From: a virus
Lineage: Duplodnaviria > Caudoviricetes
Reading direction: 5' to 3' (one strand)
DNA: 64,000 nucleotides
Virus record (IMG/VR): IMGVR_UViG_2936072512_000001
Span: 1-64,000 of that record
The position numbers and the translations under genes are program-made. Below, one piece after another: positions 51,134 to 64,000 of this stretch. Below the pieces are notes generated by a model. It had not been told where the DNA came from and ran no database searches. It was given only the letters and a program-made list of their open reading frames with translations. The number at the start of each line of letters is the position of its first letter. Positions within the stretch are counted from its first letter, which is position 1.

Positions 51134-51432
51134 ACATCCCTGCCTGGCTCCTCAACGCTGCGCACCGTCGCGGCGTCGTCCGCAGCCTGTCGAGCCGGTC
51201 CGGCAACATGGTGAACACGCCGATCGTGATGCGGTTCTCCGCGCGGACGTGGGCGCCGCACTGGCTGCTGAAGGCCTCCCTCCGCCACTCGTGGGCGATC
51301 ATGAACCGCTCGAAGAGCGACGCGTACGCGCTCGCCCGGGTCCAGCGCTCCAACCAGGCGATGAGCGGGCTCGTCATCTGGGAGTTCACCTTCCGGCCGC
51401 TGGCCTACACCGATCAGAAGCGGGGGTGGTGA
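51130..51432 (+). CDS. hypothetical protein
   Basis: coupled on both sides. Confidence 0.55.
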   Translation: MNIPAWLLNAAHRRGVVRSLSSRSGNMVNTPIVMRFSARTWAPHWLLKASLRHSWAIMNRSKSDAYALARVQRSNQAMSGLVIWEFTFRPLAYTDQKRGW

Positions 51433-52154
51433 TGGCGCGCATCAATGACCAGGAGTACGTGCTGCTGCCGGTGGATGCGGTCACCCCGCACCCGGACAAC
51501 GCCAACCGGGGCAACGTCGACCTCATCGCCGAGTCGATCGAGACGAACGGCTTCTACGGCGTCGTCGTCGTGCAGAAGTCCCGCATGCGGGTCATCGCCG
51601 GCGAGCACCGGTGGCGCGGCGCCCGCGCCAAGGGCCTGGCCGAGTTTCCCGCCGTGGTGGTGGACGTCGACGACGAGACCGCCAAGCGGATCATGCTGGC
51701 CGACAACAGGACCAGCGAGCACAGCGAGTACGACGAGGAGCAGCTGGTCGCGCTGCTGCAGTCGCTGCCTGGCCTGGACGGCACCGGCTGGACCGACGAC
51801 GACCTGGCCGACCTGCTCGACTCCCTCGACGACGAGATCGAGATCGTCGCCGACGAGCCGGGCACGGGCCGATCCTCCTCGCCTCCTCCTCGACCGGCTC
51901 ACGCCGAGGACGACGCCGAGTCCGAGGAGGACGACGATGACGATCTCGACGAGGCCCTGGACGACGGGGACGAGCCAGCCCCCGCCGAGCCGCCACGGCC
52001 CAGAAGCGGACAGACCGCTGAGCTGATCGTGCCGCTCACCGCCGACGAGCACGCCGAAGCGTTCCAGCTCATGGCCGTCATCCGTGAGCGGGACGGCGAC
52101 CTGTCGTTGCCTCAGCTGGTGCTCGCGGCGCTGCGCACGCACGCCAGAACGTAG
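51432..52154 (+). CDS. ParB N-terminal (ParBc/Srx) domain protein with acidic tail
   Basis: PHPDNAN..IAESIETNGF..IAGEHRW..LADNRT. Confidence 0.85.
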   Translation: MARINDQEYVLLPVDAVTPHPDNANRGNVDLIAESIETNGFYGVVVVQKSRMRVIAGEHRWRGARAKGLAEFPAVVVDVDDETAKRIMLADNRTSEHSEYDEEQLVALLQSLPGLDGTGWTDDDLADLLDSLDDEIEIVADEPGTGRSSSPPPRPAHAEDDAESEEDDDDDLDEALDDGDEPAPAEPPRPRSGQTAELIVPLTADEHAEAFQLMAVIRERDGDLSLPQLVLAALRTHART

Positions 52155-52181: not shown

Positions 52182-52658
52182 ATGCCGAAGGTCAACAAGG
52201 CCCGCGAGGTGGAGCTCGCCCAGCGCCGCTACCAGGCGGTGCAGATGCGCATCGCCGGGGTGCCGCTCGCCATCATCTCCGAGCGTCTCGGCTACTCCGG
52301 GCCCGCGTCGGTGTCGAAGGACATCGATCGGTCTTTGCAGAGGGCCGCCGCGCAGGAGCACATGGCCTCCGAGCACCTGCTGAAGCTGGAGATCGACCGG
52401 CTCGACCGGGTCATGGCCGCGCTGTGGCCCAAGGCGCTCAAGGGCGACGTCCAGTCCTGCGAGACGATCTTGAAGACGATCAACCGGCGCAGCTCCCTGC
52501 TCGGCCTCGACCTGATCAACCGCAACGGCGTCGGCGACACCGACATGGCCTCGCTGCTCGGCAACATGCTCGCCCAGCTGCAGGCCAAGCACCTGCCCGC
52601 GCAGCCGAACGTGGACGCCATTATCGAGGCCGAGGTGATCGCGGAGATCGAGGCGTGA
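52182..52658 (+). CDS. terS: terminase small subunit
   Basis: N-terminal HTH, RLD....LW.KA..GD...RR..LLGLD; precedes terL. Confidence 0.75.
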   Translation: MPKVNKAREVELAQRRYQAVQMRIAGVPLAIISERLGYSGPASVSKDIDRSLQRAAAQEHMASEHLLKLEIDRLDRVMAALWPKALKGDVQSCETILKTINRRSSLLGLDLINRNGVGDTDMASLLGNMLAQLQAKHLPAQPNVDAIIEAEVIAEIEA

Positions 52659-53941
52659 CAGCGGTCGTCGACGGGCCGCTGCTGTCGCCCAAGCAGGAGT
52701 TCGCCATCGCCGACTCCACCGCCCGCCTGAACTGCTTCCACGGCGCCATCCGCTCCGGCAAGACCGTCGCCTCGCTGATCAGGTGGGTCGCCTACATCGC
52801 CAACGCGCCGCGCGGCGGCTCCCTGGTGATCGTCGGCAAGACGGCGGACACGATCAGCCGCAACATCTTCGACGTGCTCATGGACCCGGCGATCATGGGG
52901 CCGATTTCGCGCCGCATCATCTACACGCGCGGGGCGCCGACCGCGAACATCATGGGCCGCCGCGTCGAGATCATCTCCTCCAACGACGCCCGCTCGGAGA
53001 ACCGGCTGCGCGGCATGACGTGCGCCGGGGCGTACGTCGACGAGGCGACGCTGATCGAGCGGCCCTTCTGGGACATGCTGCTGTCGCGTCTGTCGGTGAA
53101 GGGCGCCCAGCTGTTCTGCACGACGAACCCGGACGCGCCCAACCACTGGTTCAAGAAGGACTTCCTGGACCGCTCTCACGAGCTGGACCTGAAGCACTGG
53201 CACTTCACCCTCGACGACAACCCGTTCCTCGACCCCGCCTACGTGAAGGCGCTGAAGGCCGAGTTCACCGGCCTTTGGTACAAGCGCTTCATCGAGGGCC
53301 TGTGGGTCATGGCCGAGGGCGCCATCTACGACATGTGGGACCCCGACATCCACGTCGTCACCTCGCTGCCGCCCATGGAGAAGTGGCTGGGCCTGGGCAT
53401 CGACTACGGCACCACCAACCCGTTCAACGCCCTGCTGGCCGGGGTGTCGGTGCCGGACCGGATGGGGCAGCGCCGCATCTACTTCGCCGCCGAGTGGCGG
53501 TGGGACGCTCGCGCGCAGCGCCGCCAGCTGACGGACGGCGAGTACTCCAAGGCGCTGTCGGCGTGGCTGGCCAAGATCCCGGACACGTACGGGCCCGGCA
53601 CCTACGGGGTGAAGCCGCAGTGGACGGTCGTCGACCCGTCCGCGGCCTCGTTCATCACGCAGCTGTACCGCGACGGCTGGTCGCCGGTCCCGGCCGACAA
53701 CTCCGTCAACGACGGCATCCGCACGGTCGCGAACCTCATCTCGGCCGACCAGCTGCGCGTCCACGCCTCCTGCAAGGGCTGGCTGGACGAGGTCGGCTCG
53801 TACGCGTGGGACGACCGCAAGGCCGACAAGGGCGAAGACTCGCCGATCAAGCTTGACGACCACGCGCTCGACGCCGGCCGCTACCTGCTGCACACCACGC
53901 AGGCGGCGTGGCTGCCGCTGATGGAACGCCTCCCCGCCTGA
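52655..53941 (+). CDS. terL: terminase large subunit (PBSX-like)
   Basis: GAIRSGKT, YVDEAT, TTNPD, IDYGTTNP, DDHALDAGRY. Confidence 0.95.
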   Translation: MTAVVDGPLLSPKQEFAIADSTARLNCFHGAIRSGKTVASLIRWVAYIANAPRGGSLVIVGKTADTISRNIFDVLMDPAIMGPISRRIIYTRGAPTANIMGRRVEIISSNDARSENRLRGMTCAGAYVDEATLIERPFWDMLLSRLSVKGAQLFCTTNPDAPNHWFKKDFLDRSHELDLKHWHFTLDDNPFLDPAYVKALKAEFTGLWYKRFIEGLWVMAEGAIYDMWDPDIHVVTSLPPMEKWLGLGIDYGTTNPFNALLAGVSVPDRMGQRRIYFAAEWRWDARAQRRQLTDGEYSKALSAWLAKIPDTYGPGTYGVKPQWTVVDPSAASFITQLYRDGWSPVPADNSVNDGIRTVANLISADQLRVHASCKGWLDEVGSYAWDDRKADKGEDSPIKLDDHALDAGRYLLHTTQAAWLPLMERLPA

Positions 53942-54098
53942 CCTCCCTGATCGTCCGCCCCGCCTACTCCGCGGGGCGGGCCCGCTCCGCGCCCCCGTCC
54001 CCGTGGGCGCGTCGAGCGCGGCTGTGGCCGCGCGCCGTTGAGGGGCGGCGCGCGGCCACAACGCAAGCCCCACCCATCGGAACAGCGTGAGGAGCCAC

Positions 54099-54566
54099 GT
54101 GGACTTCGTTTTCAACATCTCCAAGGGGCGCGGGGTGGAGCTCTACCACCGCGTCAAGTCATCCGACCCGGCCGGTACGGCGCTCGTGGTGGTGGCGCTG
54201 GCGCAGACCGGCCTCGCCACCGACGCCGACCTGCGGATCGCCGACACGCTGTCGGCCATCCTCGGCGGCTCCTCCAACGAGGTGACCAACGTCGGCTACG
54301 CCCGCAAGGTGCTCGTGGCGGCCGACCTGGCCGCCTGGGCTCCGGACGACACCAACCACCGCACCGACCTGGACATCCCCGACCAGACGTGGAACAGCGT
54401 CGCCACAGGCGACTCGTGGGGCAAGCTGCTCGTCTGCTACCGGCCCACGGCCGGCGCGGCCGACGCCGACATCGTGCCCGTCTCAGGCCACGACTTCGTC
54501 GTCTCGCCGGACGGCACCAACGTGGTGGCGCAGATCGACGCCACCGGCTTCTACCGGGCGGCCTGA
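54099..54566 (+). CDS. putative virion structural protein
   Basis: GAGGAG RBS; beta-rich with GYARK motif; location. Confidence 0.6.
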   Translation: MDFVFNISKGRGVELYHRVKSSDPAGTALVVVALAQTGLATDADLRIADTLSAILGGSSNEVTNVGYARKVLVAADLAAWAPDDTNHRTDLDIPDQTWNSVATGDSWGKLLVCYRPTAGAADADIVPVSGHDFVVSPDGTNVVAQIDATGFYRAA

Positions 54567-54567
54567 C

Positions 54568-55026
54568 ATGGCCAAGGCGGGTTACACGATCCAGGCGCCG
54601 TGGACGGCCGTCCCTGCCGGTGGCGCCGGTAAGACGCTGCTGCAGGTGACGCTCCCGTCCTCGTTCGGGCTGGAGATCAAGAAGATCCGGGTCGGGCTCA
54701 ACGGCACCTCGGCCACGGCGGTGCCCGGCATCATCGACCTCATCGCCGCGACCGCGGCGGGGGCGAGCGTCACCAGCGCGACCGTGCAGCAGGTGTACGG
54801 CAGGACCATCGCGCACGGACTGACCGCCCAGCACACGCTGACGGGCGAGCCGACCGGCATCAGCGTGCTGGACCCGTGGCCGCTCTCGCCGAACGGCGGC
54901 CTGGTCCTGTACGACTGGCCGCTCGGCGACAGCCCCGACTTCGCCCCGTCGTCGATCTTCGGTATCCGCGCGACGTTCCCGGCGGCGGTGTCGGCGATGG
55001 TCACTCTGTGGGTCGAGCGCATCTAG
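54568..55026 (+). CDS. putative virion structural protein
   Basis: beta-rich, coupled. Confidence 0.6.
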   Translation: MAKAGYTIQAPWTAVPAGGAGKTLLQVTLPSSFGLEIKKIRVGLNGTSATAVPGIIDLIAATAAGASVTSATVQQVYGRTIAHGLTAQHTLTGEPTGISVLDPWPLSPNGGLVLYDWPLGDSPDFAPSSIFGIRATFPAAVSAMVTLWVERI

Positions 55027-55772
55027 GGCAGATAGCCCCAGTCGCGTGCGACCGGCCGCAGCAGCTCCGGCACAAGGTCAGGGGCCGGTAGCGGGCGAGG
55101 CGGCTGGACAGCGCCGGTGCGGATCTTGTCGCGCCAGTCTCCCAGGCCGCGCGGCCACTCGCTGTGGCGCGGCCCGTAGTGGAGCATGGCCGGCTCGAAG
55201 TCGACGCCGAGGAAGCCGCACACGTCCTGCAGCACCGCTTCCGGATCTGCGGTCAGCTGCTCGTACCGGACTGTCCAGCCTGGCAGGGCGGCGCGGGCGT
55301 CGGAGACGGCGTCCATGCAGCCGCGCAGGTATCGGGCAGAGGCGGCGGGGCCGTGCCGGGTGGCTTCCAGCCACGAGGTGAGCACGCTGCCCGGGTGCCG
55401 CAGCAGGAAGATCCAGCGGGCATCGGGCCAGCAGGAGGCCAGCCGCCGCCAGTGCGGCACGTCCGTGGGGCTCTTGTGCACCAGCGTGGCCTTGCCCGAC
55501 CGGGCGAGCAGCTGGTGCGCCAGCTGGTCCCACAGCAGGTAGTCCAGCTCGTCCTGTCCGCCGAGGTCGCCGAGCGCCAGCCGCGCGGGCGGGGACGCGG
55601 CGGCGGAAATCTTGGCCAGCGGGATCTCGTGCGGGGCGTGCAGGCGGCTGTGGCCGCCGAGTACGGCACGCAGCAGCGTGGACCCTGACCGGGGGGCGCA
55701 GGCCACGATGACCGGCTCCTTCACCAGACGCACCGACGCCTTCTTCGACCAGCCCCGAGCCTCGCTGTTCAT
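55023..55772 (-). CDS. PAPS-dependent sulfotransferase family protein
   Basis: APRSGSTLL 5'-PSB, LLRHPGSVLTSW 3'-PB, VRYEQLTADPEAVL..VCGFLG. Confidence 0.9.
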   Translation of the reverse strand: MNSEARGWSKKASVRLVKEPVIVACAPRSGSTLLRAVLGGHSRLHAPHEIPLAKISAAASPPARLALGDLGGQDELDYLLWDQLAHQLLARSGKATLVHKSPTDVPHWRRLASCWPDARWIFLLRHPGSVLTSWLEATRHGPAASARYLRGCMDAVSDARAALPGWTVRYEQLTADPEAVLQDVCGFLGVDFEPAMLHYGPRHSEWPRGLGDWRDKIRTGAVQPPRPLPAPDLVPELLRPVARDWGYLP

Positions 55773-55786
55773 CTGAGGAGGTTACG

Positions 55787-56491
55787 GTGCCCGTCGAGGT
55801 TGATCCGTCGCTGCCGCTCGTGGCCACCGCGTACGACGCCCTGTCGGTCGGGCCGTTCAACACCCCCGCGGGGGCTCTCCTCGTCGTGGGGTTCGCCGGG
55901 TACGGGTCGTCGACCCCGCTGGCCGACGGCGTCACCTTCACCCTCCAGCAAGAGTCCCCGCTGTGGACGTACGCCCAGCTCTGGACGGCTCCGCTGACCG
56001 CAGCACGGACCGGGCTCGAGATCGAGATGCCCGCAGCGGAGATGGTCGGCGGGATGAAGGTATGGGTCGTGACCGGCCAGGCCTCCCCGGTGGCCGTGGG
56101 CCAGGGCGGCAGCGGGTCGCTGACGACCAACAACGCGACCGTCACCGGCTACAACAGCAGCAGGGCCGGAACGCTCGGCCTGGCCGTTGGCTACGAGGAC
56201 GACCAAGTCGCCGAGACCGCGACGCCAACCACCTCCACCGACATCTTCGACCGCTACTACAAATCTGACCTTCACGGCCCGGGTGTCCCCGGGTCGGCTC
56301 TGTTCCTGCACAAGGCGGCGCCTGCGACGGCGGCCGGGCAGGCGGTCACGTTCAACCTGAACGCCCCCGGCACGGCCGCTGCCGACTGGCATTGGGCCGC
56401 GATCGAAATCCTCAACGCGCCCGACGCGCCCTCGCCGCCGCGCATCGTGCACGCGGCCCGCGCTGCAACGCACCGAGCATCGAGTTGGTAG
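55787..56491 (+). CDS. putative virion structural protein
   Basis: GAGGAGG RBS; Ala/Thr/Gly-rich. Confidence 0.65.
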   Translation: MPVEVDPSLPLVATAYDALSVGPFNTPAGALLVVGFAGYGSSTPLADGVTFTLQQESPLWTYAQLWTAPLTAARTGLEIEMPAAEMVGGMKVWVVTGQASPVAVGQGGSGSLTTNNATVTGYNSSRAGTLGLAVGYEDDQVAETATPTTSTDIFDRYYKSDLHGPGVPGSALFLHKAAPATAAGQAVTFNLNAPGTAAADWHWAAIEILNAPDAPSPPRIVHAARAATHRASSW

Positions 56492-56503
56492 CGGAGGTGA
56501 GCG

Positions 56504-57523
56504 ATGGCCCGCCCAGGGCGTAGCTATCCCAACCGGCCCGTCATCGTCCGACCCCTCGCCGCACCGGTGGCGCGACAAGCCGTCGAGACCGACTCGGCCA
56601 CCGCCTTCACCTTCGCCCGCGGCCGGTACGCGCACCAGGTGGAAGAGCACGACACCGCTCACCCGATCGCGGCGGCCAAGGTCGTGCCGGTCGGCAAGGC
56701 GTTGGAGTCGACGGAGCCCGGCCACGTCTCGCCCGTCAAGGCGGGCCTGGTCAAGCAGGCCAGCGAGACCGACACCGCCTCCACCACCGACGCCCGCAAG
56801 CGGGTTCTGGTCGGCCGCGCCGACGAGCACGACAGCGCCGGCATCATCCGGGCCAAGGCCCGCCTCTACACCGCGGTGCAGGCCGACATGGCGTTGCCGA
56901 TCACCCCGGTCAAGGCGCAGACGATCGGCCGCGCCATCGACATGACGCTGCCGCGCCCCATCCGGGCCGCCAAGCAGCAGCTGGTCCGAACGGCGGCCGA
57001 GTCTGCGGCCAGCTGGCCGATCGAGGCGAACAAGTCCGCCTTCGTCGGCTTGGCCGTCGAGCACTCCTCCGGCGCCTCGATCTTCGTGGGCGCGTCCCTC
57101 GTTGTCGTCGTCGGCCGCGCCGACGAGATCACCCTTGCAGGCCGTATCGGGCGCGTCTGGCCGCTGCTGCGTGTCGGGCGGCCCAGGCGCTCGTGGGCGG
57201 CCCGCCTTCATGCGAGAGGAGCCGGTGGCGTGCAGCCGATCAGCAGCCTGTCTCGGGAGTACGTGTGGCTGTACGTCGAGGGGGCCTCCGGCGCTGAGCC
57301 GGTCGAGGTCGCCTTCACCGTGCCCGGCGTCGAGCCGGCCGAAGGCCAGTGGCATGACGCCGAGTGGAGCGGCCGAACTCTGGAGGGCGCGCACGCCCGC
57401 GTCCGGGTCGGCCCAGGCCCTGACGCTGTCGCCTTGGCCGAAGGCACCTGGCAGGCGTGGGTGCGCGTCACCCGCCCCGACATCGAGCCCGTCCTGCCGT
57501 CCGGCCTCGTCCCCATCATCTGA
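56504..57523 (+). CDS. repeat-containing putative virion protein, possible fusion of two genes
   Basis: about 21-aa repeats (VG.A.E.D.A..I); internal AGAGGAG-N8-GTG at 57230. Confidence 0.65.
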   Translation: MARPGRSYPNRPVIVRPLAAPVARQAVETDSATAFTFARGRYAHQVEEHDTAHPIAAAKVVPVGKALESTEPGHVSPVKAGLVKQASETDTASTTDARKRVLVGRADEHDSAGIIRAKARLYTAVQADMALPITPVKAQTIGRAIDMTLPRPIRAAKQQLVRTAAESAASWPIEANKSAFVGLAVEHSSGASIFVGASLVVVVGRADEITLAGRIGRVWPLLRVGRPRRSWAARLHARGAGGVQPISSLSREYVWLYVEGASGAEPVEVAFTVPGVEPAEGQWHDAEWSGRTLEGAHARVRVGPGPDAVALAEGTWQAWVRVTRPDIEPVLPSGLVPII

Positions 57524-57583
57524 CCATCGAGAGGGCCGACGTGTCCGCCCAGTTCAACGCACTGCCCACGGGGGAGGGATGCC

Positions 57584-59149
57584 ATGCCGCTGCCTGAGCG
57601 TGACATGGAGTGGCCGCCTCCGAAGATCAAGCCCGAGATGCACCAGTACGAGATCCACGGCGCGTGGTACTCGGGAGACCCTGAACGGCTCGCGAAGGTG
57701 TACGGCGGAGCATTCGGCAGCCCGGCCTACGGCCTGGACGCCAAGGGCTGGGACCGTCCGCAGGTCAACCCGCTCGGCCTGTGGGGGCGGGTCACGTCGA
57801 TGTTCTGGGCGCGCAAGCAGCTGCCCGGCCAGACGTTCACCCCGAAGCTGCACGTCCCGGTCGCCGGAGACATCGCCTCCACCAGCGCCGACCTGCTGTT
57901 CGCCGAGCCGCCGACGCTGCGCGTGCAGGGTGAGGACTCGCAGACCCGCCTGGAGAAGATCCTCGAAGAGGGCGGCGTGTACGGCGTCCTGCTCGAAGGG
58001 GCCGAGCTCGGCGCCGGGTACGGCGGCGTGTACGTGCGCGTCGGCTACAACACCGACGTCGCCGACTACCCGATCGTCGACCTCGTGCCCGCCGACGCCG
58101 GCGTGCCCGAGTTCGCCAACGGCCGGCTGAAGGCGGTCACGTTCTGGCGGGTGCTGGAAGACGACCACAAGACGGTCTGGCGGCACCTGGAGCGGCACGA
58201 GTCTGGTCGCGTCTTCCACGGCCTGTACAAGGGCACTGAGGACCGTCTCGGTGACGCGCAGCCGCTCGCCGACCATCCGGAGACCGCTGACTTCGCCAAG
58301 CTGGTCGACGCGGCGGGCGGGTTCGACACCGGATACAAGGGGCTGCTCGTCTCCTACGTGCCGAACATGCGTCCTCACCGGACGCTGCGCGGCACCAGTT
58401 TGGGCCGCTCCGACTACGCCGGGGTTGAGCAGCTCATGGACAGCCTCGACGAGGTCTACACGTCCTGGATGCGCGACATCCGGCTCGGCAAGGGCCGCGT
58501 CTTCCTGCCCGAGGTGTACCTGGAGAACCGGGGCCGCGGCCAGGGCGCGTCGTTCGACCCGGACCGCGAGTTCTTCTCCGGGTTGGGCATGCTGCCGTCG
58601 CCGAACAACGCGGGCAGCATGATCACGATCTCGCAGTTCGACATCCGCGTGGCCGAGCACAAGGAGTCGGCCAAGTCGCTGCTGGCGCAGATCCTGCGCG
58701 GCGCCGGGTACTCGATGCAGTCGTTCGGCGAGGACGACAACGCCGGGCAGGCGGCGACCGCGACCGAGATGCACATGCGCCGCCACAAGTCGTACACGAC
58801 CCGCGGCCGGAAGACCGGCTACTGGACGCCGACGCTGGCGTGGCTGACGGACTGCCTGCTGACGGTCGACCAGAAGGTGTTCAACTCGAAGGTCGTCGCC
58901 GCCCGCGCCCAGGTCGAATGGCCGGACGGCGTCATGCCGGACCCGGAGGCGATGGCCCGCACGCTCGACTTCCTGAACCGGGCACAGGTCGCCTCCCTGG
59001 AGACGAAGATCCGCATGCTGCACCCCGAGTGGGACGACACGCAGGTGCGCGAGGAGACCAAGCGGCTGCGCGCCGAGCTCGGCGTGCTCGTCGAAGACCC
59101 GGCCAAGCTGCGCGAAACCTACATCCCCGACGCTCCCAAGGCAGCCTGA
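57584..59149 (+). CDS. phage portal protein (SPP1/A118-like)
   Basis: 521 aa; SADLLF.E, GRSDYA..LMDSLDE, DIRVAEH, TATE; position. Confidence 0.9.
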   Translation: MPLPERDMEWPPPKIKPEMHQYEIHGAWYSGDPERLAKVYGGAFGSPAYGLDAKGWDRPQVNPLGLWGRVTSMFWARKQLPGQTFTPKLHVPVAGDIASTSADLLFAEPPTLRVQGEDSQTRLEKILEEGGVYGVLLEGAELGAGYGGVYVRVGYNTDVADYPIVDLVPADAGVPEFANGRLKAVTFWRVLEDDHKTVWRHLERHESGRVFHGLYKGTEDRLGDAQPLADHPETADFAKLVDAAGGFDTGYKGLLVSYVPNMRPHRTLRGTSLGRSDYAGVEQLMDSLDEVYTSWMRDIRLGKGRVFLPEVYLENRGRGQGASFDPDREFFSGLGMLPSPNNAGSMITISQFDIRVAEHKESAKSLLAQILRGAGYSMQSFGEDDNAGQAATATEMHMRRHKSYTTRGRKTGYWTPTLAWLTDCLLTVDQKVFNSKVVAARAQVEWPDGVMPDPEAMARTLDFLNRAQVASLETKIRMLHPEWDDTQVREETKRLRAELGVLVEDPAKLRETYIPDAPKAA

Positions 59150-59180
59150 CCCGGCCGCCCCTCCACGAAGGGGGTAGCGG

Positions 59181-61358
59181 GTGGCCACCGTCACCGAGCA
59201 GGTCGCCGCAGCTCTGGCCCAGGCCGAGCAGGTCGCCCGCATCTACGAGCAGGCCGAGCTGGACCTGCTGGAGGCGATCGCCAAGCACGCCGCCAAGGAC
59301 ACCAGCAGCGACGACGCCGACTTCTGGGCGTCCAAGCGGCTGGCCGACATCCAGCAGCTGCGCAAGGAGGCGGCGCGGATCGTCGCCCGGCTCGACAAGG
59401 CCGCCAAGGCCGCCGCGAAGGGCGCCGTCAACACCGCGTGGCAGGCCGGGGTCGACAAGGCGATCGTCGGCGCTGTCGAGCAGGTCCACGACGAGAAGCT
59501 GAAGAAGCGGCTGGCGCGCGTCATGCGCGACGCCCGCAAGCTCGGCTCCTCAGGCCTGGTCAACCAGGGGCAGGGCGTGCTGGAGCTGGCCGAGCACCTC
59601 ACGGGGGACATCGTCGGCAAGTTCGACGTGCTGCACCTGGCCGTGCTGCGCGTCACCGACGACATCTACCGCAAGGTGATCGGCCAGGTGGCCGGGCCGG
59701 TACTGGCCGGGTCGCGGACGCTGCGCGACGCCGTCCAGGACGCGCTGAACCAGTTCGCCGCGGGCGGCATCAAGGGCTTCGTCGACGCCGCAGGCCGCGC
59801 TTGGGGGATGCGCGAGTACGCCGAGATGGCCACCCGCACCGCGACCGCCCGCGCGGCCGTAGAGGGCGAGCTGGCCACGCTGGGCGACGCCGGCCTGGAG
59901 CTGGTGATCGTGTCGCGGGCTCCGTCGTCGTGCTCGGTGTGCGACCGCTGGGAGAACAAGGTCCTGGCGCACCGCGGGGCGGCCGGGCAGCGCCAGGTGG
60001 AGAGCGTCCTCGACCCCGACCAGATGGTGACCGTCGAGGTGGCGGCGACGGTGTCCGAGGCCCGCGCCGCAGGGCTGCTGCACCCGAACTGCCGACACTC
60101 GCTGACGGCGTACCTGCCCGGGGTGACCACGCCCGCGCCGGTCGTGGACGCGCCGTCGTACGAGGCGACGCAGAAACAGCGCGCCCTGGAGCGCAAGGTC
60201 CGCGAGTGGAAGAAGAAGCAGGCCGTCGCCGTCGACGACCACTCCAAGCAGGTCGCCAAGGCCAAGGTGGAGGCCTGGCAGCAGGCGTTGGCCGCGCACG
60301 TGGCCGACGAAGGGTTGAGGCGCAAGCGCGGCCGGGAACGGCTCATGGCCAACGAGACGATGCCCGCGCCGTACGAGAAGAAGCCGCCCAAGCCTCAGGC
60401 GGCAGAGCCGAAGAGTCCGGCCGCTGACCGCGCCGAGGCTGCGCCGCCCCCTGCAGCGCCGTCTCCTGCGACACCGTCTCCTGCAGCGCCGCCCGCGACG
60501 CCTCCTGCGCGAACCGAGCCTCCGTCTCAGCCAGAGCCGGCCCGCTCCGACACCCCCTCCGACGTGGCAGAGGCAGAGCCCACCCGCGAGGAAGGGCCCG
60601 ACACACCCTGGCACCACCGGCTGGGCGAGGTGTCCGCAATCAAGACCAACGTGGATTCGGGCGAAGCGAGCCGCCGCAACATCGCCAAGGGCATCCAAGG
60701 CGTCAAGGCGAAGGTGCAGTTCGTCAACGGGACCGAAGGCTTCCACAAGCAGATGGCGACGGACGATCGAGGCAAGAAGACGAGTGGGCGCCGCGACACC
60801 GACGCTGAGCAGCTGTCCTCGCTGCTCGGGCGCGCCATCGGAGCTCCGGTCCCTCGCGTCTACCGAACAGGAGAGGCCGAGTACTACACCGACTGGGTGG
60901 AAGGCGACACCGCGGCCGAGTACACCGGGCCTGACCCAGACGGAGTGAGCGAGCGGCTTATCGCCTCCCGCGAAGGGCTGCTCCTCGGCCTGCTGGACGT
61001 CCTGACCGCCAACACGGACCGGCATCTCAACAACTGGATGATCGGCAAGAACGGCGAGCTGGCGGGCATCGACCACGGCCTCGCCTGGGAAGGCGGCTTC
61101 GGCGACGATCCGCTGCCGCTGAGCCACCTCAACCCCAGCGGCCCGTTCGCGAGCCAGCTGTTCAGCTGGCGCACGTTCGAGCTGAAGAACACCAACCGAT
61201 TCACGCCGGAGGACATCGCTGTGCTGCGAACACGGCTGGAAGCGTTGCGCCCCGACTTCGCCCTGCTCGGCCGGGAACAGTGGCTGGACTACAGCCTGCA
61301 CTGGCTTAACCAGGTGGGGCGGCGCGCCACCGGCACGACCTCTATCGTGGCCCCATGA
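59181..61358 (+). CDS. minor capsid (MuF-like) protein with C-terminal HipA/PI3K-like kinase domain
   Basis: GRAW...YAEMATRT, C..CDRWE, GLLHPNCRH, QKQRALER; Pro-rich linker; TDRHLNN and IDHG. Confidence 0.88.
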   Translation: MATVTEQVAAALAQAEQVARIYEQAELDLLEAIAKHAAKDTSSDDADFWASKRLADIQQLRKEAARIVARLDKAAKAAAKGAVNTAWQAGVDKAIVGAVEQVHDEKLKKRLARVMRDARKLGSSGLVNQGQGVLELAEHLTGDIVGKFDVLHLAVLRVTDDIYRKVIGQVAGPVLAGSRTLRDAVQDALNQFAAGGIKGFVDAAGRAWGMREYAEMATRTATARAAVEGELATLGDAGLELVIVSRAPSSCSVCDRWENKVLAHRGAAGQRQVESVLDPDQMVTVEVAATVSEARAAGLLHPNCRHSLTAYLPGVTTPAPVVDAPSYEATQKQRALERKVREWKKKQAVAVDDHSKQVAKAKVEAWQQALAAHVADEGLRRKRGRERLMANETMPAPYEKKPPKPQAAEPKSPAADRAEAAPPPAAPSPATPSPAAPPATPPARTEPPSQPEPARSDTPSDVAEAEPTREEGPDTPWHHRLGEVSAIKTNVDSGEASRRNIAKGIQGVKAKVQFVNGTEGFHKQMATDDRGKKTSGRRDTDAEQLSSLLGRAIGAPVPRVYRTGEAEYYTDWVEGDTAAEYTGPDPDGVSERLIASREGLLLGLLDVLTANTDRHLNNWMIGKNGELAGIDHGLAWEGGFGDDPLPLSHLNPSGPFASQLFSWRTFELKNTNRFTPEDIAVLRTRLEALRPDFALLGREQWLDYSLHWLNQVGRRATGTTSIVAP

Positions 61359-61603
61359 GAGCGATGCGTCTCGTGGACATCGGCGAGGGCGACGACATCG
61401 GCGTCCTGTCCCTCAGCGACGACGGAGTCCTGTCGTCATCGTCGCCGCACGTCGACCGGCTGGTCCGCGGCAAGCAGCGGCTGTTCTCCTGGACCGACGC
61501 CGACACGTTCGCCTACTTCGCCGGCGAGCTGGGCGAGACCTGGCCCAGTAACAACGGCCCGTGGTCGGACGGTGTGCTGCGTTTCGAGGTCGCAGCCCCG
61601 TAG
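61355..61603 (+). CDS. small protein, candidate immunity protein
   Basis: ATGA overlap with the toxin-like gene. Confidence 0.6.
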   Translation: MRAMRLVDIGEGDDIGVLSLSDDGVLSSSSPHVDRLVRGKQRLFSWTDADTFAYFAGELGETWPSNNGPWSDGVLRFEVAAP

Positions 61604-61622
61604 CCAGACCCTGATCACTCTT

Positions 61623-61731
61623 GAAAGGCCCGCCTGGCGCGGGCCTTTCGCATGTCCGGGCCAGTCACCCTGACTGTCCTCCCACAAACCCCTGAAGGCC
61701 CGTCCTGGCGGCGGGCCTTTCGCATGTCCGG
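61623..61731 (+). repeat. duplicated hairpin element upstream of the scaffold gene
   Basis: AAGGCCCG..CCTGG..CGGGCCTTTCGCATGTCCGG at 61623-61659 and 61694-61731. Confidence 0.75.
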
Positions 61732-61749
61732 CTCCAGGAGGGCCACACG

Positions 61750-62577
61750 ATGTCTGATCTGATGACGATGACGCCGGGCGCGATCATCGGATACCGCAAG
61801 AGCGGCGCTCCGATCCGCCTGATCGGCGGAGGTTCAGAAGGTGCGCCCGAGGGCGGCGCGGGCGGCGCAGGTGATCCTGCCGGTGCTGCCGGTGCTGGCG
61901 CTTCGTCCGCTGGTACGGCGGGCCCCGCCGTCGAGGATGATCCGCCTGCCAACCCCAACGCCAAGCGCGTCGACGAGCTGCCCACGTGGGCGCAGAAGCT
62001 CGTCAAGGACCTGCGCACCGAGGCTGCGGACTTCCGCACCCAGCTGGCGGACGTGAAGCGGCAGGCCGAGACGCCGCCTGCTGGCCCCTCCGTGGAGGAG
62101 ATCTCCAGCCAGGTCCGCAACGACGTCGCCAAGCAGATCGCCGACGCCCTGGGCATCACGACCAGCGAGGAAGCTCCGCCGCCCGACCCCGAGCAGGTCA
62201 TCGCGCAGCTGACCGCCGACAAGCAGGCCTCCGACACGCAGGCCCGGCAGTCGGCCGAGCGGCACCGCATGGCGCTGGTCGAGCTGGCCGTGCACCGCAT
62301 CTCCACGCGGACCGGCGCCGACCCTGACGCTCTCCTGGACTCCCGGTCCTTCCTGAGCAACATCCACGGCCTCGACCCCGACGCCGCTGGCTTCAACGAC
62401 ACGTTGACCGCCGCGATCACGCAGGCCGTCAACGACAACCCCAAGTTCGCGGCCGCCCAGGCGCCGGCCGCTCAGCGATCCGGAGGCGAGTTCGGCGGCG
62501 GGCCCGGCGGACGCAGCGAATCGGACGAACCGTCCGTCGATGACTTCCGCGCCAAGCGGCGCGCCAAGAAGGAGTAG
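61750..62577 (+). CDS. capsid scaffolding protein
   Basis: LPTWAQK...LRTEAA..R, LLDSRSF, SGGEF; precedes capsid. Confidence 0.8.
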   Translation: MSDLMTMTPGAIIGYRKSGAPIRLIGGGSEGAPEGGAGGAGDPAGAAGAGASSAGTAGPAVEDDPPANPNAKRVDELPTWAQKLVKDLRTEAADFRTQLADVKRQAETPPAGPSVEEISSQVRNDVAKQIADALGITTSEEAPPPDPEQVIAQLTADKQASDTQARQSAERHRMALVELAVHRISTRTGADPDALLDSRSFLSNIHGLDPDAAGFNDTLTAAITQAVNDNPKFAAAQAPAAQRSGGEFGGGPGGRSESDEPSVDDFRAKRRAKKE

Positions 62578-62582
62578 CCGAC

Positions 62583-63497
62583 ATGGCTAACACGTTCCTC
62601 ACCCCGCAGAAGATCGCCAGCGCCGCGCTGGCGACGCTGTACGAGACCTGCGTCATGGCGCAGCTCGTGCACCGCGACCTCGACCAGGACTTCGCGGGCA
62701 AGCAGGGCGACACCGTGAACGTCCGCAAGCCCGCGACGTTCGACGCCTACGAGTACGACCGCAGCCAGGGCATCCAGATCCAGAACGCGACCGAGACGGC
62801 GATCCCGGTCACGCTGAACCACTTCGCCGACGTCTCCTTCGCCGTCACCACGGAGGAGCTGACGCTGGAGATCGAGGACTTCGCGACCCAGCTGCTCACC
62901 CCGGCGATGGAGGCCATCGCGCAGAAGATCGACCGCGACCTGCTCGCGCTGCGCGACGACATCACCCAGGAGGTCGGCGTCGTCCTGGACCCGAACATCC
63001 ACACCTGGGACAAGCCGCAGGTCCTCATCGACGCCGACCGCGTCCTGAACGAGCGCAACGTCGCCCCGACGCAGCGCTCGGCGGTGATCGGCCCGCAGAT
63101 CAAGGCGAACTGGCTGTCCGACCCGCTGTTCCACCAGGTGGACACCTCGGGCACCACGGACGGCCTGCGCGAGGCCTCGCTCGGCCGCCGCGTCTTCGGG
63201 TTCGACCCGTACTCGACGCAGAACATCAAGCGGCCCGCGCAGGTCTCCGGCAACTCCAAGTCCGAGGTCGGCGTCGCCTTCCACCGGACGGCGTTCTGCC
63301 TCGTCACTCGGCCGCTGGTGCTGCCGCAGGGCGCGGCCCGCGCGACCGTCGCCAACTACAAGGGCTTCTCGCTGCGCGTCGTGATCGACTACGACATCGA
63401 CCTCAAGCAGGACGTGTGCTCGATCGACACGCTGTACGGCACCAAGACGCTCGACCCCAACCGCGCGGTCCTGGTGAAGGACGCCGACGTCGCCTAG
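62583..63497 (+). CDS. major capsid protein (P22 coat-like)
   Basis: MANTFLTP, GDTVNVRKP, AFHRTAF.LVTRPL, DTLYG. Confidence 0.9.
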   Translation: MANTFLTPQKIASAALATLYETCVMAQLVHRDLDQDFAGKQGDTVNVRKPATFDAYEYDRSQGIQIQNATETAIPVTLNHFADVSFAVTTEELTLEIEDFATQLLTPAMEAIAQKIDRDLLALRDDITQEVGVVLDPNIHTWDKPQVLIDADRVLNERNVAPTQRSAVIGPQIKANWLSDPLFHQVDTSGTTDGLREASLGRRVFGFDPYSTQNIKRPAQVSGNSKSEVGVAFHRTAFCLVTRPLVLPQGAARATVANYKGFSLRVVIDYDIDLKQDVCSIDTLYGTKTLDPNRAVLVKDADVA

Positions 63498-63505
63498 TCG
63501 ATTCC

Positions 63506-63535
63506 TAGCGGAACCGCTGTGAAGCGGTTCCGCTC
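63506..63535. promoter_or_regulatory. two adjacent degenerate copies of the palindrome, also able to form a hairpin
   Basis: TAGCGGAACCGCTG and AAGCGGTTCCGCTC after the capsid stop. Confidence 0.65.
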
Positions 63536-63556
63536 CTTTCCTGCAAGGAGACCTTG

Positions 63557-63919
63557 ATGGGCTACAAGCCCCGCATCACTGAGAAGACCATCACGCTCAA
63601 GGGCGCCGACGTCGCCGCGGGCACCCACGTCCTGTGGCGGGCCCCGGTCCCGTGCCGTGTCGTCGCCGTCCGCGCCTACCGCATCGGCGGCTCCGGCGCC
63701 GCCCCCACCGTCAACGCCCACAAGAACGGCGTGACCATGCTCACCGGCGACCTGTCGGTGGCCACCGCCACGACCTGGACCGCCGCCTCGCTCGCCGCCG
63801 TGGCCGCCCGCCGCTTCGTCGAGGGCGACACCCTGGCGGTGCAGGTCGTCACGGCGGGCGGCACCGCGCCTACCGACCTGATCATCCAGGTCGACATCCA
63901 GAAGGACGCCAACTTCTGA
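63557..63919 (+). CDS. putative head decoration / virion protein
   Basis: AAGGAG RBS; beta-rich; follows capsid. Confidence 0.65.
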   Translation: MGYKPRITEKTITLKGADVAAGTHVLWRAPVPCRVVAVRAYRIGGSGAAPTVNAHKNGVTMLTGDLSVATATTWTAASLAAVAARRFVEGDTLAVQVVTAGGTAPTDLIIQVDIQKDANF

Positions 63920-64000
63920 TGCCCGGCCCGCGCACCCCTGTGGATCACATGGGCGCGATGACCGCAGCCGAGAACGTCAACGCGATGGGCGCGACCGGCG

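Follow-up and report, generated by a model that had tools for sequence, protein, structure and literature searches.

A phage MuF head protein with a C-terminal atypical kinase-like domain and an overlapping small gene: a candidate injected effector and its neutraliser

A MuF head protein ends in a kinase-like domain and overlaps a small gene

We analysed a 64,000-nt stretch of DNA from a virus of the Caudoviricetes (IMG/VR record IMGVR_UViG_2936072512_000001, positions 1 to 64,000; hereafter the window), which corresponds to 15272-79271, minus strand, of a 106,290-bp contig (G000:C26). The subject here is a gene whose product, P0001, joins a MuF-type minor capsid domain through a proline- and alanine-rich linker to a kinase-like domain, together with the small open reading frame (ORF) behind it, P0002 (Table 1). 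A preliminary description made from the letters of this DNA had proposed a minor-capsid domain with the motif HPNCRH, a Pro/Ala linker, the motifs FHK, DAEQ, DRHLNN and IDHG, and an 82-aa ORF overlapping the fusion gene by ATGA, and we found each of these where it had been placed. HPNCRH is aa 301-306 of P0001 (nt 60081-60098) and lies within a match to PF06152, the family named 'MuF2' in PMC5576092.

We observe this architecture directly: P0001 has one carrier domain and one effector-type domain. A Shine-Dalgarno-like GAAGGGGG lies upstream of the GTG start of the 725-aa ORF, and the gene is immediately downstream of the portal gene (portal stop at 59149, MuF start at 59181), which is where MuF genes are typically placed (PMC5576092). 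The MuF part has a GC content at the third codon position (GC3) of 0.97 and the kinase part one of 0.87, and the raised GC at codon position 2 in the linker is expected from Pro and Ala codons.

Table 1. Features of the MuF-kinase locus and the neighbouring head genes
Feature	Position (nt)	Strand	Basis
Large terminase gene	52424-53941	+	PHROG 2, E 3.6e-47
Portal gene	57584-59149	+	PHROG 533, E 2.5e-100; Pfam SPP1_portal, E 4.6e-09
MuF-kinase fusion gene (P0001), 725 aa, GTG start, TGA stop	59181-61358	+	
MuF2/Phage_min_cap2 head domain, aa 15-374	59223-60302	+	Pfam PF06152, E 6.1e-55; PHROG 581 minor head protein, E 2.4e-84
Pro/Ala-rich linker, aa ~394-475	60360-60605	+	Translation; GC at codon position 2 = 0.755
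Atypical protein-kinase-like domain, aa 476-725 (250 aa)	60606-61355	+	AlphaFold2 model, structure searches, Pfam
Gly-rich loop, G504-G507	60690-60701	+	
K523 (FHK)	60747-60749	+	
E543 (DAEQ)	60807-60809	+	
Catalytic loop DRHLNN, D613-N618	61017-61034	+	
Mg-binding IDHG, aa 630-633	61068-61079	+	
Partner ORF (P0002), 82 aa, candidate cognate inhibitor	61355-61603	+	ATGA overlap with the stop of the fusion gene
Scaffold-like gene	61750-62577	+	PHROG 8952, E 5.6e-33; PHROG 233 head scaffolding, E 2.1e-05
Major capsid gene, P22-coat type	62583-63497	+	Pfam P22_CoatProtein, E 2.9e-44; PHROG 283, E 1.6e-73

The C-terminal domain has the fold and the catalytic residues of an atypical kinase

To describe the C-terminal domain we used an alignment of 34 sequences (A1), made up of the window's domain and 33 short relatives. 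E543, D613, R614, N618 and D631 are invariant in A1, K523 and the Gly of the beta2-beta3 turn are at least 90% conserved, and the full catalytic set (G504/G507, K523, E543, D613-R614-H615-N618 and D631) is present and conserved in alignments A1 and A2. The four motifs named in the preliminary description are thus invariant or nearly so, and their conservation across 34 sequences indicates that they did not arise by chance. In Pfam, PI3_PI4_kinase (PF00454) matches aa 604-636 only, at 28.0 bits against a cut-off of 27.1.

An AlphaFold2 (AF2) model made from the single sequence of the domain had a predicted local distance difference test score (pLDDT) of 37, and we used instead the model made from the A1 alignment (pLDDT 91.1, predicted template modelling score 0.91). 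When this model was compared with the Protein Data Bank (PDB) by Foldseek, the top matches were all kinases (PRPK/Bud32, RIO, VPS34 and PI4KII-alpha). VIA-align, which is independent of Foldseek, returned 173 chains at a Z of at least 8, and the 50 that were listed are all kinases or kinase-like. PI4KII-alpha ranked first (Z 13.4, 220 of 250 residues aligned, 17% identity), followed by actin-fragmin kinase (Z 12.8, 204 residues) and Helicobacter pylori CtkA (Z 12.4, 201 residues), and at lower ranks by Fam20C (Z 12.0), HipT(Lp) (7wcf, Z 11.9), RIO1 (11.4), HipA (11.1) and HipT(Ec) (10.7); further down is an aminoglycoside phosphotransferase fold (Z 9.2). The entry 7wcf is HipT of Legionella (PMC10627512). 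HipA, PI3/4 kinases and CtkA, which the preliminary description had named as kin from the motifs, are therefore among the nearest structures, and the kinase fold that it had proposed for the C-terminus is present together with the full catalytic set.

When the domain was searched against PDB sequences with phmmer, there were no matches at E ≤ 10, so kinship to solved kinases is detectable at the level of fold only. PI4KII-alpha, actin-fragmin kinase and CtkA share a DRHxxN-type catalytic loop and an IDxG-type Mg-binding loop. These three (4pla/4hnd, 1cja and 3akj, respectively) are structural neighbours over nearly the whole domain; they differ in that identity is 8-18%, the window's domain is much smaller (250 aa) and has no eukaryotic accessory regions, and its context is a phage head. 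On the strength of the model, we conclude that the C-terminal domain is probably an atypical, catalytically complete protein-kinase-like enzyme.

The kinase family is widespread and usually sits at the C-terminus of its carrier

An exhaustive HMMER search found the family in 968 clusters (50% identity) at E ≤ 1e-3 and in 568 at E ≤ 1e-10. Among the best 150 proteins (181-7828 aa), the kinase domain is C-terminal, meaning within 30 residues of the protein end, in 118, internal in 28 and N-terminal in 4. Among 60 mid-length relatives, 47 match PI3_PI4_kinase in Pfam (best E 7.2e-20), and carrier domains comprise VG15 (8), Phage_min_cap2 (7), Phage_Mu_F (4), Portal_Mu (2) and Phage_portal (1); 5 of the 60 also have an ADP-ribosyltransferase domain (ADPrib_exo_Tox). 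Eight longer relatives include the combinations Portal_Mu with kinase, Phage_Mu_F with kinase, and VG15 with ADP-ribosyltransferase and kinase. Similarly, BFVD holds PI3/4K-like folds in phage portal, head-morphogenesis (MuF) and ADP-ribosyltransferase fusion proteins. In their source databases the relatives are annotated as 'hypothetical protein', 'VG15 protein', 'phage minor capsid protein', 'ADP-ribosyltransferase' or 'WXG100-like domain-containing protein'. At one locus (L015, G007:C15), a single ORF combines a prohead serine protease (Peptidase_S78), a 2H/2'-5' RNA-ligase-type phosphoesterase and the kinase, and a partner ORF follows; it is thus a further carrier of the head-protein kind, here with two cargo enzymes.

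In a sample of 401 genomes of the window's bacterial family, 27 carry the kinase domain, often in giant frames of up to 13,736 aa and sometimes in several copies. A sample of 401 genomes at the level of the phylum gave strong matches beyond the window's own in only two (G587 and G887); 30 further matches, weak and partial, were to other kinases, and we left them out of the family. A single-domain search of viral contigs found no relative. Giant frames with the kinase in related actinobacteria have lengths of 20,955 aa (G887:C85), 13,736 aa (G101:C5), 10,123 aa (G151:C15), 10,004 aa (G101:C8) and 5,053 aa (G364:C1), with up to four copies per frame.

A family of small partner ORFs follows the kinase

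P0002 has the composition of a coding sequence (GC at codon positions 1, 2 and 3 of 0.65, 0.48 and 0.90), and in the frame plot the GC3 signal shifts to its frame at ~61310-61520. We found no ribosome-binding site of its own, and a scan of 57000-64000 for promoters of the sigma-70 type, the only type scanned for, found none.

To see what lies behind the kinase elsewhere, we surveyed 31 kinase loci: the window, Micromonospora phage pMLP1 and 29 loci from other genomes. The kinase ends its ORF in 16 of the 31 (0-27 residues after the match), and in all 16 it is followed by a partner-family ORF of 66-91 aa. A hidden Markov model (HMM) of the partner was built from 13 of these 16 loci, and the remaining three (L015, L021 and L027) were found by that HMM, as were matches at three loci of other layout (L013, L028 and L029). 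The start of the partner and the stop of the kinase gene overlap by 4 nt in 10 of 13 listed loci. We observe this linkage across unrelated carriers: MuF2 proteins (L008, L017, pMLP1 and the window), the prohead protease with 2H domain (L015), stand-alone genes of ~320-340 aa (L005 and L021), and long or giant proteins. No case of the partner domain in cis was seen among the 150 kinase-bearing proteins.

An HMM made from the 12 partners of other loci, with P0002 left out, matches P0002 at 29.4-29.7 bits, and when it was run against 882 six-frame segments of the window, P0002 had an E of 2.8e-08 and the next best segment an E of 0.5. Members of the family are beta-rich in their N-terminal part, have a turn with the sequence D-D-G-x-L-T, and carry near the C-terminus a W-S-N-G-Y motif that is almost invariant. 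Judged by these profile matches, P0002 is a genuine, divergent member of a previously unannotated family of small proteins and not a chance ORF. At aa 62-71 (window 61538-61567), P0002 has W-P-S-N-N-G-P directly before W-S-D-G-V; it looks as if the W-S-N-G motif had been duplicated locally, which would account for a 12-aa insertion in P0002.

When we scored the family-level sample for both genes, the partner was present in 22 of the 27 kinase-positive genomes and in 8 of the 374 kinase-negative genomes. The genomes in this count are related and hence non-independent, and the kinase side was searched with a single sequence, so that some of the genomes with the partner only may hold divergent kinases. 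The pairwise identities among kinases rise and fall with those among partners (Mantel r 0.80, n=19; none of 5000 permutations reached this value).

A word-index search for homologues of P0002 returned only P0002 itself, which reflects a limit of the index, since profile searches recovered the family. Searching the Atlas with P0002 yielded no match better than chance, and the Atlas model of P0002 has a pLDDT of 0.46. We also considered that the partner might be calmodulin-like and rejected this, as the PDB profile matches (E 0.03-0.2) are non-significant and probably come from the D-D-G-x-L-T motif.

The C-terminus of MuF varies together with the small ORF behind it

A C-terminus invariant among homologues would have told against the preliminary description, and we found that it varies. 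Among 50,697 deposited phage records, 202 match MuF, and pMLP1 is the only one with the same MuF-kinase fusion; of the 201 without the kinase, the 29 listed match only within aa ~21-376. In pMLP1 (CP058906.1) the fusion is an unannotated 647-aa ORF with 34% full-length identity to P0001 (E 1e-102), and it is followed by a partner-family ORF and then by a scaffold-like gene, as in the window. It differs from the window in having a shorter linker and a partner with the canonical GWSNG motif.

A MuF homologue is present in 43 of 110 genomes from the window's genus. The 11 nearest orthologues (50-54% identity) have either no C-terminal extension or an unrelated one. Seven are short (381-439 aa) and have none; in six of these the scaffold gene follows 75-94 nt downstream with no small ORF between, and for the seventh no downstream ORF passed the filter. 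The other four (651-658 aa) carry an unrelated extension of ~265 aa that belongs to no Pfam family, and in three of the four it is followed by a different ORF, of 56 aa, again with an ATGA overlap. This 56-aa ORF scores 26.8 bits against Pfam RMF (ribosome modulation factor), just under the cut-off of 27.9. Thus, one head-gene lineage alternates between a bare MuF without a small ORF, a MuF with one extension and its own small ORF, and a MuF with the kinase and its partner, a pattern that matches the one published for MuF toxins (PMC5576092). The MuF proteins of sibling species at L040, L041 and L043 (655-658 aa; L041:1480-3620) offer a second candidate effector-partner pair in the same head-gene lineage.

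A related kinase is found on a carrier of another kind. An 802-aa protein of the same genus has an N-terminal WXG100_2 domain (35.3 bits) and a C-terminal kinase with 38% identity to the window's. At five such loci (L076-L080, from G439, G485, G480, G424 and G477), a 128-aa ORF lies behind the kinase gene in 5/5, with a stop-start overlap in 3/5. The partner HMM does not match at these loci, and the 128-aa ORF has no Pfam family; as a possible member of the partner family it was rejected, since hhalign gives 0.1% and the two are not detectably related. A different branch of the kinase on a secretion-type carrier with a different coupled gene therefore fits the logic of a toxin and its neutraliser. 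At L080, a 205-aa ORF with a weak match to Amidoligase_2 is inserted between the kinase gene and the 128-aa ORF.

Likenesses to and differences from known systems

In the features that sequence can settle, the P0001 gene belongs with the MuF effectors, a class that takes in both MuF polymorphic toxins and polyvalent proteins. It has in common with MuF polymorphic toxins an N-terminal MuF domain (PF06152, one of the kinds that define them beside PF04233, MuF3 and MuF4), a place after the portal gene, a variable C-terminal effector and a small ORF of under 150 aa that is present only with an extension (PMC5576092, PMC3482391). It differs from them in its effector, a kinase of the PI4KII/actin-fragmin kinase/CtkA-like kind, and in a partner family that has no Pfam model. 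The word 'kinase' does not occur in the main text of PMC5576092, and PMC3482391, in the passages covered, lists only a lantibiotic-synthetase-type 'Tox-Peptide Kinase', with the reservation that the supplementary lists of both may hold more. We found no published description of this kinase family as MuF cargo in the main texts searched, PMC9503650 included. The earlier remark that a kinase would be uncommon among described MuF effectors thus agrees with the literature searched, though the domain itself is common in sequence data.

The polyvalent proteins of PMC5512222 are alike in that head-packaged MuF or portal domains are combined with enzymes, among them ADP-ribosyltransferases and kinases, that are predicted to be injected along with the DNA, and relatives of the window's kinase are found in proteins that combine MuF, VG15 or portal domains with an ADP-ribosyltransferase and a kinase, and in giant ORFs, some with several copies of the kinase; many of these relatives are polyvalent in the full sense. 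PMC5512222 describes a kinase of the Ser/Thr/Tyr type whose C-terminal subdomain has been lost and which is found chiefly in Verrucomicrobia-Chlamydia and Bacteroidetes, as well as a MuF fusion with a zeta-toxin-like kinase; the term 'PI3K' is absent from the main text. The polyvalent model predicts no dedicated small partner gene, whereas the partner is the most regular feature of the window's kinase family.

HipA and HipBST are of the same fold class, and in HipBST a kinase is paired with a small protein: HipS (~100 aa) neutralises the kinase HipT with Trp65 wedged next to the Gly-rich loop (PMC10627512). HipS uses a Trp, and the partner family here has the conserved W-S-N-G-Y motif. In the window, in contrast to HipBST, the partner is downstream (the reverse gene order), there is no HipB-like regulator, and the kinase is fused to a virion protein and is not part of a free toxin-antitoxin module. 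None of the HipA families in Pfam (HipA_C, HipA_2 and Couple_hipA) matches P0001 at E ≤ 1, HipA_2 is found in 1 of 60 relatives, and the A1 kinase profile compared with Escherichia coli HipA by hhalign gives a probability of 0.8%. Couple_hipA was sought in 21 genomes, the window's own among them, and found in none. The Atlas model of one partner (pLDDT 0.77) has a 109-aa Couple_hipA protein in one of its ten neighbour sets (TM 0.55/0.41 over 61 residues), which carries little weight at such a length.

T7 gp0.7 is expressed after injection and is not packaged, and neither it nor T4 Alt is known to have a dedicated small partner gene. Both belong to folds or families unrelated to the window's kinase. 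The likeness is one of function, as T4 Alt is a modifying enzyme that is packaged in the head and injected, and the T7 kinase phosphorylates host proteins (PMC5512222, PMC9503650).

The kinase and the small gene as a proposed injected effector and its neutraliser

We think it probable that P0001 is a MuF head protein with a catalytically intact atypical kinase, and that the kinase and the 82-aa gene form a single exchangeable two-gene cassette of injected cargo and inhibitor. The logic of such a cassette, a virion-delivered effector with its cognate neutraliser, is supported by the linkage and exchange described above. In SPP1, gp7 binds the portal and is present in 1-2 copies per capsid (PMC5576092); by analogy, the MuF domain of P0001 would bind the portal and a few copies of the fusion would enter the procapsid. 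The fusion would then exit the capsid along with the DNA, and in the newly infected cell the kinase would phosphorylate one or more host targets, and so disable or re-programme the cell at the onset of infection. The target would more likely be a protein than a lipid, and a few enzyme molecules could suffice to modify it. In the producing cell, P0002, translationally coupled to the fusion, would bind the kinase and keep it inactive until packaging, as an antitoxin-like plug. For the way in which it might do so, inhibition in the manner of HipS is a weak lead only.

Several observations weigh against this interpretation. That the kinase is active and toxic, that P0002 binds it and that the fusion is packaged and ejected are predictions of this reading, and with a lipid kinase as the nearest solved structure, the choice of a protein as substrate is guesswork. 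Among the partners P0002 diverges most, with 18-26% identity to the other 17 in alignment A3, and apart from its insertion it departs from the N and Y found in at least 90% of members, with D and V at these positions. Five of the 27 kinase-positive genomes have no match to the A3 partner profile (G097, G127, G326, G348 and G364), which indicates that the partner is not obligatory for every copy of the kinase; in 5/5 of these genomes the kinase lies inside a long or giant ORF. The Mantel result speaks for inheritance as a cassette and not for contact, because linked genes diverge together whether or not their products bind. Kinase and partner are both acidic (median pI 5.1 and 4.9), so charge gives no hint of pairing. 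No credible Pfam family was found for the partner among 18 members (the best match was Cadherin_5, E 0.0076), and the partner profile has no significant likeness in sequence to the N-terminus of HipA or to HipS (hhalign against HipA aa 1-120, 0.4%).

The first alternative is the classical MuF polymorphic toxin as in the Jamet model, in which the kinase kills or arrests non-lysogenic competitors and the 82-aa protein is an immunity protein for lysogens and kin. This is close to the preliminary description, which had read the two genes as a kinase toxin and its immunity protein. A MuF after the portal, a variable C-terminus and a small downstream ORF are the published definition of such toxins (PMC5576092), short MuF orthologues have no small ORF and long ones have one, and the same kinase family ends WXG100_2 proteins, of the type VII secretion system (T7SS) type, that have their own coupled small ORF. 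Of the earlier reading, the coupled ORF family behind the kinase stands. The immunity of lysogens is doubtful, however: the small gene has neither a ribosome-binding site nor, within the scanned region and promoter type, a promoter of its own, and it overlaps the stop of a late gene in the head operon, so it would be expected only alongside head proteins and not in a quiescent lysogen. In addition, no integrase was found on the contig. We regard immunity of lysogens as a serious but unlikely possibility, and because the small gene lacks its own translation signal and no sigma-70-type promoter was found, we favour a plug that acts in the producer.

The small protein could also be a positive partner of the kinase, whether an activating or substrate-targeting subunit or a chaperone for folding or packaging. 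Strict linkage and co-divergence fit any obligate partner, small subunits of atypical kinases are known (PRPK, the top Foldseek match in the PDB, was solved with TPRKB), and copies of the kinase in giant ORFs occur without the partner. However, a C-terminal effector with a coupled small ORF that differs by effector type is the signature of a toxin and its neutraliser, and an activator would be fused to its kinase more often than the 0/150 found in cis. We consider a positive role rather unlikely.

A third alternative concerns the substrate, which could be a phosphatidylinositol-type lipid, a nucleotide or an antibiotic-like compound, so that the enzyme would be a lipid or small-molecule kinase and not a protein kinase. 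PI4KII-alpha is the best structural match and PI3_PI4_kinase the Pfam family matched, and the aminoglycoside phosphotransferase fold is among the structures listed. Even so, the protein kinases (actin-fragmin kinase, CtkA, Fam20C, HipT/HipA and RIO) are within 1-2 Z units of PI4KII-alpha, identity to PI4KII-alpha is low, and no membrane-binding feature was seen, with no search aimed at one. This alternative seems to us decidedly unlikely. Least probable, and in our view very unlikely, is that the kinase acts late in the producing cell, on phage head proteins or on host factors of assembly or lysis timing, with MuF serving only to place it at the site of assembly: the gene does belong to a late head operon and is fused to a head-assembly protein, but the domain is dispensable for the head type (7 of the 11 nearest orthologues have no extension and 201 of the 202 phage records no kinase domain), the same cassette is found on carriers outside the head, including WXG100_2 proteins and stand-alone genes, and a neutraliser made in the same cell makes little sense for an enzyme that acts there.

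If the enzyme is nevertheless a PI4KII-like one, it might phosphorylate host phosphatidylinositol-type lipids at the point of DNA entry, be held by a HipS-like plug in the producer, and belong to a cassette that moves between phage heads, T7SS-type toxins and giant polyvalent proteins, and the phage would be one of actinobacteria. Lipids of the phosphatidylinositol type are made by few bacteria, the Actinomycetota among them. We offer this full scenario as a speculation, and a very improbable one.

MuF-fused effectors are recognised yet barely tested, and few of their domains have been studied (ADP-ribosyltransferases and alarmone-type pyrophosphokinases). What this analysis adds is a widespread, uncharacterised candidate kinase cargo together with a dedicated and previously unannotated partner family that serves as its reliable marker. 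If the reading of a kinase and its plug is true, it would add a new phosphorylation-based weapon to phage-host and bacterial conflicts, in the form of a compact two-gene module whose small ORF could be used as a simple genomic marker to find more such cargo.

The contig and the surrounding head module

The window is of high GC content (0.62-0.72), and its final 12 kb are a head module on the + strand that is clearly of phage origin. Nearly all of the 75 high-GC3 ORFs of the contig are on one strand. We looked on the contig for a tyrosine integrase, tRNA genes and a terminal repeat and found none; the sole serine-recombinase domain is at C26:98438-98734, ~19 kb past the start of the window, and a ParB_N gene lies at window 51249-52154. 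The contig may be a phage or phage-plasmid of ~106 kb and not an integrated prophage.

Between the large terminase and portal genes there are ~3.6 kb with five ORFs (54087-57523). One of the five is a sulfotransferase gene on the reverse strand (55023-55772, -; Pfam Sulfotransfer_3, E 7.7e-23), which resembles a moron inserted at an uncommon site.

The intergenic stretch that separates the partner ORF from the scaffold gene (window 61604-61749) contains two GC-rich hairpins (minimum free energy -67 kcal/mol, z -3.15). Each is followed by an identical 19-mer (61641-61659 and 61713-61731) that is unique to this place in the window (2 exact copies, 0 expected). The hairpins resemble a terminator or processing site that has been duplicated inside a late operon, and the pair might mark a cassette junction.

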